A program made the translations under genes and the position numbers. Under the pieces are notes generated by a model. It saw only the letters and a program-made list of their open reading frames with translations. It was not told the origin of the DNA and searched no databases. DNA of 64,000 bases from the sequence record MN176217. One strand, 5' to 3'. Origin of the DNA: Escherichia phage vB_Eco4M-7. This document shows positions 41,996 through 55,023 of the stretch, piece after piece. Within the stretch, counting starts at the first letter, position 1; every line of letters begins with the position of its first letter.

Positions 41996-42619
41996 TTATT
42001 GTCCTGTAACTTCTCTGATCACACGGTCTTCAAGTTCCAGCTTCTTTACCATTTTGCAGGAGTGCTCATAAGCTGGATCAGTAGATTTGATGAACGTTCC
42101 GTTGTACATGACACCTTTGCGGTCCTTGATGTCTTCGTAGGCCGCTTGCGCACAGTCGGATAAGCGAAGGCCATAATCATGAGCTACGCCGGAAAGGTAA
42201 TCGACTGCGGCCATGATGGTGACGTCAATATCCATGGTCTGATTCTTAGCAATAGCATCACCAAGCCGTCCAAGGGTCTTTGCCAGGCGAAGGATGAATG
42301 AATGAGGGTGAGCGCCTTTATCAGCACAACCGCCGCCATTAATGTTTTCGATTTCAGTACCGTTTTGCGCCGCCAGGATGGTCAACACAACAAGACAATC
42401 GCCAATGTCGTCCTTGATTGCAGCTTGCAAGTCACAGATGGCCTGCTCTGTATATCCAATTTCAGGGTCGAAGAACACAAGGTCATGGAGTTGATCAACG
42501 TGGTCGGTTAACTCCCCAAACTCGCTGATAAGCTTCGGGTATTGGTCCTTAAGGTCGCAACCTTGGATGATGTTACGGTCAGAAGCCCACTGGCGAATGT
42601 TTGCATAAATCTGTTTCAT
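41996..42619 (-). CDS. All-alpha NTP pyrophosphohydrolase (MazG / dimeric dUTPase-like) candidate
   Basis: Acidic helical motif ISEFGELTDHVDQ; 207 aa. Confidence 0.35.
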   Translation of the reverse strand: MKQIYANIRQWASDRNIIQGCDLKDQYPKLISEFGELTDHVDQLHDLVFFDPEIGYTEQAICDLQAAIKDDIGDCLVVLTILAAQNGTEIENINGGGCADKGAHPHSFILRLAKTLGRLGDAIAKNQTMDIDVTIMAAVDYLSGVAHDYGLRLSDCAQAAYEDIKDRKGVMYNGTFIKSTDPAYEHSCKMVKKLELEDRVIREVTGQ

Positions 42620-51075: not shown

Positions 51076-51759
51076 TTATTTACCAAATGGAATATCAGTA
51101 CCAGACATAAAGCGCCATGCGCCCGTAATTAAGATATGGCGAATGAAGTCAGCAATTACTTGCGGCTCAGTCTCCAATCCATTCATCAATGCCTTTTTCT
51201 GGTATTCAGCGGCGTATTCAGGAGTCCAGCCGCGAGTCGCGCAAACGGCATCTTCAATCTGTTTAGACATGCCAGTGCCGCGCAACTTGTTAGGACTAAT
51301 AGAGAATACCGTGATGCCGTACTTAGGCGTAAGTTCGTGAGCCATCTGCTTGCTGATCATAAGCGCAGCAGCCTTGGATGCATTATAACATAAGCTGGAC
51401 GTCATAGGAATATGCGCAGCGTTGGAAACAATGTTGATCACAAAGCCTTTGTTGTCGATAAGACTTTTCAGCGCAGCCTGAGTCGTGTTAACGAAAGAGA
51501 ATGCGTTGGTGTGCATAACGCGGTTAAACTCTTCATAGTTTACATCTTCAAACCAATTGTTAGAGTTGACACCAGCACAGTTGATCAAGCCTTCAACATC
51601 ATATGGGCTTAAAATTTCTTTCATCTGTTTAGCATCGCGGACGTCATATCCGTATGCTGAATCGATGCCAAGCACGTTATGACCGTAAGCGCCAAGGGTG
51701 TCAAAAATAGATTTACCAAGACCGGAATTGGAACCTGTTACAACAATTACTTTTTTCAT
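51076..51759 (-). CDS. Short-chain dehydrogenase/reductase (SDR)
   Basis: Cofactor motif VTGSNSGLGKS and catalytic YNASK. Confidence 0.65.
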   Translation of the reverse strand: MKKVIVVTGSNSGLGKSIFDTLGAYGHNVLGIDSAYGYDVRDAKQMKEILSPYDVEGLINCAGVNSNNWFEDVNYEEFNRVMHTNAFSFVNTTQAALKSLIDNKGFVINIVSNAAHIPMTSSLCYNASKAAALMISKQMAHELTPKYGITVFSISPNKLRGTGMSKQIEDAVCATRGWTPEYAAEYQKKALMNGLETEPQVIADFIRHILITGAWRFMSGTDIPFGK

Positions 51760-51826: not shown

Positions 51827-52702
51827 CTATTTATTGAAATTAATATTATGGGTGTTGACAAGACGTTCACACATGGCGCTATAAACACCATCGTCGTGTA
51901 TCGAGTCTTCATGCTTCAGGCCGCTGATTGCGAAGCGTGTAAGCTTGACAATCTTAAGCTCGAACAGGTGCCACATGTGGTAGTCTTCCGGTGTCTTCAA
52001 CGTTACGCCATTAGGGAACAACACCTGCATAACCTGACCTACCATCACAGCGTTATCGCCATAAACGGCATTGCGCTCACGGAAGGTCGCTGCCATCGCA
52101 TCAAGAATATCAGCAGCGGTTGCTGGGGCTTGTTGTTCAACTTCAACAAGTTTAGTCTCTTCTTTTCCTGTTGCACTTGGATCAACTGCTAATTGTTGCA
52201 CCACTTCACCTGCCTTGCAAAGATTAAATGTAAAGGCGATTTTATTTTGCGCCATGGAATTATAATGCAAAGCTTCTTCTTGCATCCGCGCGAGTACGTC
52301 TTGTCTATCTTCAAATACGTTGATTATTCGATAATCGCCGTGTCGCAATACATACGATAACCATGCAGATTTCATAACAGTTGATGGACGCTTGTCGCCA
52401 TGTTCTCTCATCTTGATTGTGAATTCATCAAAAGGGAAAACGTTGTCCAGACGTTCAAAAGTGACTTGTCTGTATTTTTCTGGTCTTGCAGTCCAATATT
52501 CAACCGCCTCACCGCGAAGTGATGCCGTCTCTACTGCTGACGCAATGTTAGGATAGAACTGATCATAACCAATGCCGCTGTGGTAATCATCATAGTCGGA
52601 CAACGGGCCTGCCACCCTGATACGGTCTAAGCGCCAACGGTCATCAAACAGAGTTCCGTCAAGGTCGAATACGTTTAAGATTTGGTTATTTTTGATACTC
52701 AT
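51827..52702 (-). CDS. HAD-superfamily phosphatase domain protein with extra C-terminal domain
   Basis: N-terminal DLDGTL motif I; 291 aa. Confidence 0.5.
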   Translation of the reverse strand: MSIKNNQILNVFDLDGTLFDDRWRLDRIRVAGPLSDYDDYHSGIGYDQFYPNIASAVETASLRGEAVEYWTARPEKYRQVTFERLDNVFPFDEFTIKMREHGDKRPSTVMKSAWLSYVLRHGDYRIINVFEDRQDVLARMQEEALHYNSMAQNKIAFTFNLCKAGEVVQQLAVDPSATGKEETKLVEVEQQAPATAADILDAMAATFRERNAVYGDNAVMVGQVMQVLFPNGVTLKTPEDYHMWHLFELKIVKLTRFAISGLKHEDSIHDDGVYSAMCERLVNTHNINFNK

Positions 52703-53502
52703 CCTTTTGATACTCCATCTTTGGCAACTGGATTATTGGTGATTGGCATCGCATCCCAAAACTGGATGCGCAACTCTTCTTGCTGTGCAGTGGTATCCAT
52801 CCAATCACGATACCATGGGCAATGGGCCTTACCGTGACGAGGAAATGCGCACTTACCCATACCGATGCACTGCGGCTGTAGTAAAGGATTGGCCCACGGG
52901 TGCACCTTAAGGACTTCCGCAACCATTGCACGGAATACTTCTTGATACTCGCCTTGAGTACGCGTGCACAAGCGGTTAGAGGCCATTTGTTGTAGAGTGC
53001 GCAAGTTGAACTTTGCCATGATATGCGTTTGCATATTAGAAGGCAACACGGCACGTGCATCTTGAATCTCTGCGCCAGCCGCGCGAAGTTCTTGGTATAG
53101 GGCGTCAATGGTTGCCATTGCATCATCCCATTTCTCTGCCAGTTCAGCAGCCTTCTCGTCATGACGAGTCCATCCCTTTGGATCATCCTCTGGGTAAGTA
53201 AATTTGGCAGGACGAATCGCATCAAACGCTGATGACTCTTGAGCGCGGCTTGTGCGTTCTTGATATGCACCTGTTCGTGTGCGCACCATCTGATGAGTCA
53301 TATTCTTTGATACATCAGTGATGTCAAAGATATAGTCAACAAAGTCGAAAGGTGACTTGATGGTGTCAAGCATGTAGCGCCAGTGCTCTTGCTTCTCTGA
53401 TTCTGTCATCTCAGAGACGGGCTTGCCAGTCATGCGCGTGTTCTTTGTTTCCAGCAAAAGGTCAAGTGCATCTTGGGTGTATCGAATTAATTCAACTTTC
53501 AT
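52699..53502 (-). CDS. thyX: ThyX-like flavin-dependent thymidylate synthase homolog (variant active-site motif)
   Basis: THQMVRTRTGAYQERTSRA aligns with ThyX SHQLVRHR...S signature but has RTR in place of RHR. Confidence 0.5.
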   Translation of the reverse strand: MKVELIRYTQDALDLLLETKNTRMTGKPVSEMTESEKQEHWRYMLDTIKSPFDFVDYIFDITDVSKNMTHQMVRTRTGAYQERTSRAQESSAFDAIRPAKFTYPEDDPKGWTRHDEKAAELAEKWDDAMATIDALYQELRAAGAEIQDARAVLPSNMQTHIMAKFNLRTLQQMASNRLCTRTQGEYQEVFRAMVAEVLKVHPWANPLLQPQCIGMGKCAFPRHGKAHCPWYRDWMDTTAQQEELRIQFWDAMPITNNPVAKDGVSKG

Positions 53503-53515
53503 TTTAATTATCCTA

Positions 53516-53962
53516 TTAACGGTAGTTAACTAGTTGCTGATCACCAGAGAAGGTGCAATGATAAACGAATTGTGCGTTATAAAGCAACTGAAAACTTTTC
53601 TTTGGTTCATTATTAGAACTCATTGATGTAAAGATTTCTGCACCAGAACGGTTTTCACCAATAAGGTTTATAAAGCCGCCAGTTGAACGAGGTTGGACGA
53701 AAGTGAAACGTTGCATCCACGGAGTGCGGTTGGCACCTTTCCCTGTGAATCCCTGAATCTGAATATTCAGACCTTCTTGCTCGTTCACACCGATGTAAGT
53801 GGTAATTGTTGCGCCAGTCGTCGCTGCAGTCTTGCCGTCCATCGCTTCGCAATCGTAAACAGCGATTGAATCGGAAGTACGGACAGCGGCTTCAGTCGCT
53901 TCCATATACATGGTTCCGAGAATAGCAGTTGCGGCAAGCGCGATTCCAGTGATGCGTTTCAT
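53516..53962 (-). CDS. Secreted hypothetical protein
   Basis: N-terminal hydrophobic signal-like segment MKRITGIALAATAILG. Confidence 0.4.
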   Translation of the reverse strand: MKRITGIALAATAILGTMYMEATEAAVRTSDSIAVYDCEAMDGKTAATTGATITTYIGVNEQEGLNIQIQGFTGKGANRTPWMQRFTFVQPRSTGGFINLIGENRSGAEIFTSMSSNNEPKKSFQLLYNAQFVYHCTFSGDQQLVNYR

Positions 53963-54027: not shown

Positions 54028-55023
54028 TTATTTATTAGCAATATAAGCAAATTTTTGATAGTTATTTGCTTTGATGAGTTTTTCAACTTCAGCAAGGTCA
54101 TGGGCGACGTCATCAAGCAAAATGTTTCGCCAAGTAGCGAATCGACCGACACTAAATACGTTCAAATCCATGGTCAGTTGCAGGAGTAGGGCGTGTCGTA
54201 AGTCTTTCGGAATGTCGACAATCTTGCCATACTTCTGGTCGACCTTTTCAACTTCTTCAAGAGCGATGTCACTCCATGAGAGGCCAAAAGCCGTCAACAC
54301 TTCGTCAACTTCTGCACGCAACTTAATGTCACGGTAACGAGTAATGCCGCCAGCGGCTTCAACTGCGGCTTCACTTACGCTAACCAAAGGAATTGTTTCA
54401 ATGATCAGCGTGTCACCAGTGATTGATGCGCGGTAAGTTCTGACGGAGTAGTCAGGAAAGTAAATGGTTTGATACAGTTCACACTTGCGTTTAATCTTAA
54501 AGCGGTAAACACGAATGTTTGCCTTATCGAATGAGAAATCAATCTTTTGATCAATCCCAGCAAGCTTCATCATGACTGGCAGCGGCGATGTGTTGATGAT
54601 TGGCGTCTCGCTATAGCCGCAAAGCGTGTCGACCGGAGTATTAAAGAATATACGGTCACCCAGTTTATCGACAAGCTGATCATAAAAGTCATCAGGCGCA
54701 ATATAACGCGTTGCAGTTTTAAGCTTCATGATTGAACGGCTGCCAAACTGATTGGTGACCTTCATGGAATACATATTGGCAAGGTTGATTGGGCAATGGT
54801 CGTGATAGTAGTTACCGCGAAAATACACAGCCTTGTCAACTGTCACGGCCTTAAAAGGGATTCCGGTAATACGGCTTACTTCTTCGCCGCGAAAGCGTAG
54901 CAGGGCCTTGTGCTGTGGCGCTCGCTCCCCTGCTTCGTACACAATAGAGTTCGGGAAGTGACACGCGGTAATAAGTCCTGCCAAACCGCCGCCGATAATC
55001 ATTACAGGTTGTTTCATGTTCAT
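54028..55023 (-). CDS. FAD/NAD(P)-binding oxidoreductase
   Basis: N-terminal Rossmann dinucleotide motif MIIGGGLAGL. Confidence 0.55.
   Translation of the reverse strand: MNMKQPVMIIGGGLAGLITACHFPNSIVYEAGERAPQHKALLRFRGEEVSRITGIPFKAVTVDKAVYFRGNYYHDHCPINLANMYSMKVTNQFGSRSIMKLKTATRYIAPDDFYDQLVDKLGDRIFFNTPVDTLCGYSETPIINTSPLPVMMKLAGIDQKIDFSFDKANIRVYRFKIKRKCELYQTIYFPDYSVRTYRASITGDTLIIETIPLVSVSEAAVEAAGGITRYRDIKLRAEVDEVLTAFGLSWSDIALEEVEKVDQKYGKIVDIPKDLRHALLLQLTMDLNVFSVGRFATWRNILLDDVAHDLAEVEKLIKANNYQKFAYIANK

Follow-up and report, generated by a model that had tools for sequence, protein, structure and literature searches.

Escherichia phage vB_Eco4M-7 (genus Wifcevirus) encodes a homologue of flavin-dependent thymidylate synthase (ThyX) in which the central histidine of the RHR signature and several further active-site residues are replaced, and which probably acts as a working but mechanistically divergent dTMP synthase of a viral class. 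The gene (267 aa; 52699..53502, minus strand) was recognised from the open reading frame list, Pfam, PHROG and the predicted fold in a stretch of 64,000 nt of the phage DNA (MN176217), which is referred to as the window.

A ThyX homologue in the replication gene block

The thyX-like open reading frame starts with ATG, ends with TGA and carries the sequence AGGA 9 nt 5′ of the start. Its product matches the Pfam profile PF02511 (Thy1) with E=1.2e-30 and 107.1 bits (gathering cutoff 24.8), the match covering residues 5-203 and profile positions 2-191 of 191, and it also matches phrog_85 (thymidylate synthase) with E=5e-38. An AF2 model (pLDDT 86.9, pTM 0.80) was compared with the PDB using Foldseek. 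All top 50 matches were ThyX, including structures of the R90A and R174A variants, and the best was 1o27_A (E=5e-11; TM 0.71, normalised to target). The ThyX homology proposed in a first-pass annotation of this DNA is thereby confirmed. Identity to solved ThyX enzymes is only ~20%, and the score with the NCBIfam thyX equivalog TIGR02170 is 83.1 bits vs a cutoff of 87.9. In vB_Eco4M-7n (PP596836) the protein is 100% identical, and in phage WFC the gene is annotated as 'putative FAD-dependent thymidylate synthase'. The dN/dS of thyX within Wifcevirus is 0.09-0.10, and 86 positions are near-invariant (>=97%) across 121 sequences, showing that the gene is well conserved and under purifying selection.

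In the genome, thyX is part of a minus-strand replication gene block, where it sits between a Dda-like helicase gene and the DnaQ/DnaE polymerase genes. The genes of this replication module follow the same order in a 72.5-kb metagenomic phage contig, in Pbunavirus DP1 and in Burkholderia phage WTB. Downstream of thyX lies a gene for a 291-aa protein (51827..52702, minus strand) having an N-terminal HAD phosphatase domain of the PNKP type with a DLDGT motif (Pfam HAD_PNKP, E=3.6e-7; phrog_4889, E=1e-116). No Pfam match was obtained for its C-terminal domain and no PDB sequence match for the protein. The ATG of the HAD gene overlaps the TGA of thyX (ATGA), so that both genes are predicted to be translationally coupled. 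The HAD gene also adjoins thyX in DP1 (gp59), and one ORF separates the two in WTB. Upstream, a conserved gene (54028..55023, minus strand) encodes a predicted flavoprotein of 331 aa, which bears a GxGxxG motif near its N-terminus and has a fold of the UDP-galactopyranose mutase (UGM) / protoporphyrinogen oxidase (PPO) / amine oxidase type.

Signature motif and active-site residues

The ThyX signature or active-site loop, THQMVRTRTGAYQERTSRA, was located from alignments and sequence at residues 69-87 (53242..53298, minus strand). Its RTR motif is encoded by cgc-aca-cga (53283-53275, minus strand), the ACA codon of T75 (53278..53280, minus strand) standing at the place of the central RHR histidine. 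Placement of R74-T75-R76 was determined by phmmer to PDB, by a family profile to PDB, by MAFFT with 117 relatives and by MAFFT with 7 sequences, and in all four independent alignments it falls on R78-H79-R80 of T. maritima ThyX. Within the loop, Q71, R74, T75, R76 and E82 correspond to T. maritima Q75, R78, H79, R80 and E86, and T84, S85, R86 and A87 to S88, G89, R90 and Y91. Instead of the signature R-H-R-x7-S, the phage protein thus has R74-T75-R76-x7-T84, with both arginines kept, His replaced by Thr and Ser by Thr. The first-pass annotation had already described RTR in place of RHR, and the alignments place this replacement in the true signature region. A genuine RHR elsewhere in the protein, which would have undone that assignment, can be ruled out, as the alignments agree and a regex scan of 120 close homologues returned RTR only at this site. 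The serine had also been described as shifted by one residue. This part did not hold, since T84 aligns to the Ser88 column and S85 to the Gly89 column without a gap, which rules out an indel.

The RTR motif is invariant in 120/120 close homologues, reaching down to 52% identity and including the Pbunavirus orthologue, and T75 is accordingly found in 121/121 members of the close family. Among 117 aligned distant cluster representatives, Thr is the commonest residue at position 75, followed by His (T 65, H 28, S 7, Q 7, N 6, Y 1, K 1), and a residue able to donate a hydrogen bond occurs in 115/117. The Ser88 column, occupied by T84 in the phage protein, holds Ser in 11/121 close homologues and in 74/117 distant ones. 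As seen in structures from M. tuberculosis and H. pylori, the RHR motif, regarded as highly conserved in ThyX, as a whole hydrogen-bonds the AMP-phosphate, ribityl and FMN-phosphate of FAD, and its first Arg alone is singled out as also touching the isoalloxazine (review, PMC6514825). Because the contacts described there are to FAD, the RHR histidine would bind the flavin and not serve to recognise the base, and the polar character of position 75 would fit a retained phosphate/ribityl contact. A literature search for mutagenesis data on this histidine found none.

The RTR motif comes with a package of further changes. At the place of T. maritima H53 stands I48 (53359..53361, minus strand; Ile in 121/121 of the close family), Y91 is replaced by A87, and H59 by F54. 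In the helix segment N176-R177-L-C179-T-R181-T-Q183-G184-E185-Y186 (52945..52977, minus strand), assigned from sequence, alignment and conservation, G184 and Y186 replace W181 and I183, turning QWEI into QGEY; R177 of this segment corresponds to R174 of T. maritima. The conserved catalytic/gating pair H53 and Y91 is therefore represented by I48 and A87, and none of RTR, I48 and A87 varies among 121 sequences from Wifcevirus, Myosmarvirus, Erwinia, Pantoea, Burkholderia and related phages. The replacements I48, T75, A87 and Y186 are themselves invariant across genera. The loss of H53 and Y91, like the four invariant cysteines described below, had gone unmentioned in the first-pass annotation. 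In T. maritima ThyX, H53 stacks on the folate pterin and mutation of Y91 slows flavin oxidation ~1000-fold; both Y91 and S88 are considered critical and strictly conserved (PMC11940539).

The dUMP- and FAD-binding residues are kept, namely Q71, R74, R76, E82, R86, R150, S50, R168 and R177. In the aligned columns, identity to T. maritima was found at Q75, R78, R80, E86, R90, R147, N163, R165 and R174, with conservative swaps at T55 (to Ser) and S88 (to Thr). Arg is also retained by most of the 117 distant representatives (R74 in 117, R76 in 113, R86 in 111, R150 in 116 and R177 in 114). Invariance of both the binding residues and the replacement residues indicates that the active site is constrained.

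The viral class and its four-cysteine site

As delimited here, viral-class ThyX has Ile/Leu/Val at H53, Phe at H59, a non-aromatic residue at Y91, Gly at W181, Tyr/Phe at I183 and a variable polar residue in R-x-R; I48, F54, A87, G184, Y186 and T75 place the phage protein in this class. Two of these positions covary in the 117 representatives, where H48 is accompanied by Y87 in 11/11 and Y87 is absent in 104/106 lacking H48. With canonical ThyX/FDTS (T. maritima TM0449, M. tuberculosis, H. pylori, PBCV-1 A674R; PF02511, TIGR02170) the phage protein shares domain and fold, a hydroxyl residue at the S88 position and the annotation as thymidylate synthase, which related phage records also carry. 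It differs in the replacements listed above and in a C-terminal extension with a four-Cys site.

ThyX relatives were detected in 451 phage records, of which 292 are from Pseudomonas phages, nearly all of the Pbunavirus type with genomes of ~62-67 kb. No relatives turned up when GTDB genomes were scanned using the family alignment, and no viral-class enzyme with a published assay was found in the literature. The orthologue in the PB1-like Pbunavirus DP1 (gp60; 49% identical across its full length in tblastn) carries both RTR and the four cysteines and lies in the same surroundings as in vB_Eco4M-7, with a HAD/PNK-like gene, DnaQ, DnaE, Dda helicase and a ~330-aa flavoprotein, but it contains an insertion of ~37 residues between the second and third C-terminal Cys. 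A second viral-class case is the ThyX of Rhizobium phage RHph_TM39, which has RNR and lacks H53/Y91 as well as the cysteines. Its gene is located ~3 kb from genes for dUTPase and ribonucleotide reductase, a context expected for dTMP synthesis. Mycobacteriophage L5 gp48, reportedly a phage ThyX studied earlier, was considered as a characterised member of the class and dropped as uninformative, its residues being canonical (RHR, H, Y).

The C-terminal extension of ~60 residues (205-267; 52702..52890, minus strand) is not present in T. maritima ThyX and gave no Pfam match. It contains C212, C218 and C228 (52867-52869, 52849-52851 and 52819-52821, minus strand), which are invariant in 121/121 sequences and form the four-Cys site together with C179, its first Cys, in the helix segment. 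The four residues co-occur in an all-or-none manner, as 60/63 representatives bearing C179 have all three other Cys, and 53/54 of those free of C179 have none. In the AF2 model, mean pLDDT is 93-95 in the blocks of residues 201-250, 71 for residues 251-260 and 58 for residues 261-267.

The four-Cys site occurs in many cellular RHR-type ThyX proteins and in no solved ThyX structure. Cellular examples from MAGs (Chloroflexota, Dehalococcoidia, Bacteroidetes, KSB1, Micrarchaeia, Methanobacteriota) share with the phage protein the RLC...Q helix and the P-x-C-x3-G-x-C ... C tail. Unlike it, they keep RHR and mostly Tyr at Y91, and the listed examples keep G-H-x-S-x-x-E-H. The shared helix motif and Cys tail thus argue for a derivation of the phage ThyX from the cellular four-Cys branch. 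For P0228, a metagenomic ThyX with canonical motif, RHR and the Cys site were found together in ~107/120 relatives, with Tyr at the Y91 position in 93 of these ~107 and Phe in 13; the named relatives are bacterial and archaeal MAGs. This co-occurrence suggests that the site is compatible with ordinary ThyX function. The four Cys probably bind a structural metal, a redox centre being another possibility; a literature search for Fe-S or Zn forms of ThyX found none.

Function of the viral-class enzyme

Most likely, the viral-class enzyme converts dUMP into dTMP with bound flavin and methylene-tetrahydrofolate and thereby feeds phage DNA synthesis. T75 would take over the hydrogen bond of the RHR histidine to the FAD phosphate/ribityl, and the two flanking Arg would still hold flavin and dUMP phosphate. 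On its folate/flavin side, the pocket would be remodelled as a package, with Ile for H53, Phe for H59, a small/aliphatic residue for Y91, Gly for W181 and Tyr/Phe for I183. In T. maritima, H53/Y91 serve to stack the folate, to gate the reduced flavin and to provide acid catalysis on the carbinolamine; the viral subclass would carry out these steps differently, and the four-Cys site would link the C-terminal extension to the helix with catalytic Arg177. Against dTMP synthesis stand the replacement of the critical Y91 and the folate-stacking H53 by Ala and Ile and the score under the TIGR02170 cutoff. In addition, the host E. coli encodes ThyA, so that a thymidylate synthase of the phage is not strictly needed.

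The same losses would agree with a different product. After flavin-dependent one-carbon transfer to dUMP, the final reduction could be omitted and another C5-substituted deoxyuridylate be formed, e.g. 5-hydroxymethyl-dUMP when water attacks the exocyclic methylene intermediate; such a nucleotide, upon incorporation, would be the basis of a restriction-protective base modification of Wifcevirus DNA. The neighbouring HAD phosphatase, the UGM/PPO-like flavoprotein, an SDR and a MazG-like pyrophosphatase are possible partners. We regard this as unlikely, though as an alternative to be taken seriously. H53, H79 and Y91 are all lost and W181 and I183 covary with them, thyX is coupled to the HAD gene with the conserved flavoprotein gene upstream, and 5-hmdUMP is stated to accumulate in ThyX catalysis as an acid-trapped intermediate (PMC3498832). 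The first-pass annotation had suggested hydroxymethylation from the RTR motif; H79T itself does not indicate such altered chemistry, which the joint loss of H53 and Y91 may allow.

The unrelated ThyA family provides a precedent, as it was repeatedly repurposed in phages for modified DNA precursors, giving the dUMP hydroxymethylase of SPO1/ViI, the dCMP hydroxymethylase of T4 and the 5-hydroxy-dCMP synthase of RB69 (PMC8989533; PMC13326640); these enzymes differ from phage ThyX in fold and family. A literature search found no ThyX-derived modification enzyme. Wifceviruses reportedly withstand almost every restriction system tested, with no protective mechanism described, and EcoRI and EcoKI sites occur in the window at the expected frequency without avoidance. 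An anti-restriction protein not yet recognised, encoded by one of the many uncharacterised early genes, could equally explain this resistance. Regarding a thymidine-hypermodification pathway, only MazG-like, HAD, SDR and flavoprotein genes were found. Marker enzymes (ThyA-type dUMP hydroxymethylase, 5-hmdU DNA kinase, glycosyltransferase, aGPT-Pplase, PLP and radical-SAM enzymes etc.; Pfam/PHROG) were detected neither in 30 of ~62 ORFs >=100 aa, mainly from the early and replication regions, nor in the WFC annotation at positions 30000-72472. Also, no report of modified DNA was found for Wifcevirus or Pbunavirus, despite the 292 Pseudomonas-phage records with this ThyX class, and the viral-class gene of the Rhizobium phage lies next to dUTPase and ribonucleotide reductase genes as for plain dTMP synthesis. 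The fuller scheme, in which such a C5-modified deoxyuridylate for Wifcevirus DNA is possibly processed by the HAD phosphatase and the UGM/PPO-like flavoprotein, is more doubtful still.

A changed substrate, i.e. dCMP or a ribonucleotide such as UMP that is methylated or otherwise modified, seems very unlikely. PolB, a ThyX-like enzyme of polyoxin biosynthesis, acts on UMP as C5-methylase, and the divergent signature motif and active-site loop and the sub-threshold equivalog score would agree with such a change. In T. maritima complexes, however, R90, R174, R147, R78 and Q75 recognise the uracil carbonyls and the 5′-phosphate, and the residues aligned to them, as well as to E86, are all kept, which speaks against the switch to dCMP proposed in the first-pass annotation. 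Arg donors facing O4 are ill-suited to the 4-amino group of cytosine, and nothing in the phage replication module points to nucleoside-antibiotic or RNA metabolism. The inactive paralog suggested there as well is rejected on the low dN/dS, the 86 near-invariant positions and the invariance of T75 and the other replacement residues, and although three residues held critical in studied ThyX enzymes are absent, there is scarcely any probability left for a catalytically dead relic serving in dUMP/flavin binding or as a replication-complex scaffold, since invariance falls on exactly those Arg, Gln and Ser/Thr residues that bind substrate and cofactor.

The mechanism of ThyX, a target for antibacterial drugs, is known from a handful of canonical enzymes, and a large, constrained viral class without three residues held critical there would be a natural experiment on which residues the chemistry needs. 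The four-Cys site is a second notable feature, and Pbunavirus-type phages, which carry viral-class ThyX, belong to a genus used in phage therapy. If the product is not dTMP, the enzyme would be a candidate cause of the so far unexplained resistance of Wifcevirus to restriction; a C5-modified deoxyuridylate would represent the first ThyX-derived DNA-modification pathway and would account for these phages ignoring EcoRI, EcoRV, EcoKI and other restriction systems despite the sites present.

Identity of the thyX-like gene and its R-x-R motif

The thyX-like gene (52699..53502, minus strand; ATG start with AGGA upstream) encodes a 267-aa protein, which matches Pfam Thy1 over nearly the full profile (E=1.2e-30) and PHROG 85 'thymidylate synthase', while its NCBIfam thyX equivalog score (83.1 bits) lies just below the curated cutoff of 87.9. 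An AlphaFold2 model, calculated from an alignment of 64 homologues (pLDDT 86.9), matched only ThyX structures among the best 50 PDB hits listed. In related phage records, homologues are already annotated as (FAD-dependent) thymidylate synthase. Over about 6 kb around the gene, identity is 100% with Escherichia phage vB_Eco4M-7n (PP596836) and 93-99% with a further 27 Wifcevirus records, among them WFC, WFH, ECML-117, FEC19 and the BASEL phages Bas98-101.

The first-pass annotation had described residues 69-87 as the ThyX signature with RTR in place of RHR. Multiple alignment located the active-site motif in this segment, and R74-T75-R76 fell on R78-H79-R80 of T. maritima in four independent alignments; this is the true motif with a divergent central residue. 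Residues 46-201 of the T. maritima sequence used for MAFFT agree with the H53D-mutant chain u50898 (HMMER), except where that chain was engineered. The Ser described as shifted by one residue is not: the loop aligned without a gap (E82, T84, S85, R86 and A87 opposite T. maritima E86, S88, G89, R90 and Y91), and therefore T84 occupies the Ser column and is followed by an extra Ser. Ser itself fills the Ser88 column in 11/121 close relatives, and in 74/117 distant ones.

RTR was present in 120/120 homologues among the matches listed, at identities down to 52%, from genome-length contigs (~68-74 kb) and many short fragments; phages of Serratia, Erwinia, Pantoea and Burkholderia are among the named carriers. 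A tblastn search of a phage collection gave 451 records with a match, 292 of them Pseudomonas phages with almost exclusively Pbunavirus-type genomes (~62-67 kb). The orthologue gp60 of Pbunavirus DP1, which also carries RTR, shares 49% full-length identity by tblastn and 57% by MAFFT. When 1.84 billion cluster representatives were searched exhaustively with HMMER, 1,624 proteins matched (E<=1e-3), and the full-length members aligned among the best 150 served as 117 representatives. Their central residue was T in 65, H in 28, S in 7, Q in 7 and N in 6, with the flanking Arg kept in 117 and 113. In Rhizobium phage RHph_TM39 (L007:4980-5780), a ThyX that lacks the Cys site and any counterpart of H53 and Y91 carries R-N-R, which shows that the middle residue varies freely in phage ThyX. 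According to a review of the M. tuberculosis and H. pylori structures, RHR forms hydrogen bonds with FAD at its AMP phosphate, ribityl and FMN phosphate, and the first Arg also touches the isoalloxazine (PMC6514825). A central position limited to hydrogen-bonding side chains fits a kept cofactor contact. Judged from these sequences, RTR is a clade character and not a lesion; the His-to-Thr change by itself is probably a neutral way to bind flavin and gives no hint of a changed nucleotide substrate.

Coupled active-site changes and a four-Cys site

While the replaced central His was recognized correctly by the first-pass annotation, changes at three further active-site positions were missed. 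In the same alignment, T. maritima H53, H59 and Y91 correspond to Ile48, Phe54 and Ala87, all invariant in the close family. Among the 117 representatives, His48 was accompanied by Tyr87 in 11/11 cases, and Tyr87 was missing in 104 of the 106 proteins without His48. A column scan revealed H59/F54, W181/G184 and I183/Y186 as further discriminating positions. Because the changes at these positions are coupled across the representatives, the protein is a member of a coherent 'viral class' within ThyX (no H53/Y91, Phe at H59, Gly at W181, Tyr/Phe at I183, variable R-x-R). H53 of T. maritima stacks against both the folate pterin and reduced flavin, and Y91, proposed as general acid for the flavin carbinolamine, hydrogen-bonds H53; Y91 mutation slows flavin oxidation ~1000-fold, and Y91 and S88 have been called strictly conserved (PMC11940539). 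With both H53 and Y91 gone, the viral class must perform their steps differently; the invariant Y186 as stand-in for Y91 is a guess.

C179 (codon 52966-52968, minus strand) is two positions C-terminal of the catalytic Arg177 (T. maritima R174), and a C-terminal extension of 60 residues holds C212, C218 and C228 (52867-52869, 52849-52851 and 52819-52821, minus strand). The four Cys were invariant in 121/121 sequences. Of the 63 representatives with C179, 60 carry the other three; of the 54 lacking C179, 53 carry none. This all-or-none pattern indicates one site, most simply read as a metal site, for which Zn or Fe-S would both be possible. The site is not specific to RTR proteins, as relatives of P0228, a metagenomic ThyX with canonical motif whose cluster includes a partial Methanobacteriota MAG protein, share it. 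About 107 of 120 such relatives combine RHR with RLC...Q and P-x-C-x3-G-x-C...C, with Tyr (93) or Phe (13) at the Y91 position; named ones derive from MAGs of Chloroflexota, Dehalococcoidia, Bacteroidetes, KSB1, Rokuibacteriota and Micrarchaeia, on contigs of up to 1.4 Mb. The solved ThyX structures matched showed no Cys-bearing extension in alignments printed to near query residue 204. No paper on a ThyX four-Cys site was found, and it is apparently undescribed.

Genome context

The gene lies in a leftward replication block with the order Dda-like helicase, 281-aa ORF, 331-aa flavoprotein, 148-aa ORF, thyX, HAD gene, short-chain dehydrogenase/reductase (SDR), 183-aa ORF, DnaQ, DnaE, helicases, MazG-like pyrophosphatase and ligase; the core order is conserved in Pbunavirus DP1, Burkholderia phage WTB and a metagenomic contig. 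The 148-aa ORF (53516-53962, minus strand) gave no family match, and its signal-peptide-like N-terminus (MKRITGIALAATAILG...) is odd within a replication module. The TGA of thyX overlaps the ATG of the HAD gene (ATGA; 51827-52702, minus strand), suggesting translational coupling. The N-terminal part of this 291-aa protein is a HAD phosphatase domain of PNKP type with a DLDGT motif, and its 110-aa C-terminal domain is without assigned family; its gene adjoins thyX in DP1 and is one ORF away in WTB. The downstream FabG-like SDR gene (51076-51759, minus strand; adh_short E=2.6e-31) had no counterpart at the equivalent position in the Pbunavirus, Burkholderia-phage and metagenomic loci examined. 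The MazG-like nucleotide pyrophosphatase (41996-42619, minus strand; phrog_1992 E=3e-62), adjoining the DNA ligase gene, could shape the dNTP pool. In RHph_TM39, the gene of another viral-class ThyX precedes those for dUTPase and RNR by ~3 kb. Such neighbourhoods would be expected for a dTMP-supplying enzyme. The scanned ORFs and the WFC annotation for the equivalent region gave no additional thymidylate synthase and no dUTPase, dCMP deaminase or RNR, nor any marker of known thymidine-hypermodification pathways.

Relative to base composition only, the window is 2.3-fold depleted in GATC (109 observed, 247 expected) and has no BamHI site (GGATCC; 0 observed, 13 expected). Two motifs are in excess: HindIII AAGCTT (54 observed, 18 expected) and CAGCAG (73 observed, 27 expected).

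Product, substrate and selection

Repurposing of viral-class ThyX to a different product, a candidate DNA modification, appears unlikely. Wifcevirus phages are reported insensitive to the EcoRI and EcoKI RM systems, and the respective sites are not avoided in the window (EcoRI, 17 observed, 17.9 expected; EcoKI, 7 observed, 7.1 expected), so some active protection must exist; an unrecognised anti-restriction protein is no less likely as its source. Also, 5-hydroxymethyl-dUMP can be trapped by acid as an intermediate of the ThyX reaction (PMC3498832), several repurposed enzymes of the ThyA family are known from phages (PMC8989533, PMC13326640), and thyX is predicted to be coupled to a phosphatase gene. 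These points are not evidence of modified DNA. No assayed viral-class ThyX was found in the literature. L5 gp48, reportedly a studied phage ThyX, is canonical.

The first-pass suggestion of dCMP as altered substrate found no support, and supply of dTMP from dUMP is the preferred reading. The columns of T. maritima R78, R147, Q75, E86, S88 (Thr in the query), R90 and R174, whose residues hold the dUMP phosphate and polarise the uracil, are kept in the query and near-invariant in relatives, which argues for dUMP and against dCMP; R90A and R174A variant structures appear among the PDB fold matches. The inactive paralog also proposed there is refuted; pairwise dN/dS of 0.09-0.10 (dS ~0.4-0.5) among three Wifcevirus thyX alleles excludes a decaying paralog. 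More notable than the RTR motif are two other features, the joint loss of H53 and Y91 and the four-Cys site, which together mark out a widespread, uncharacterised class of viral ThyX.
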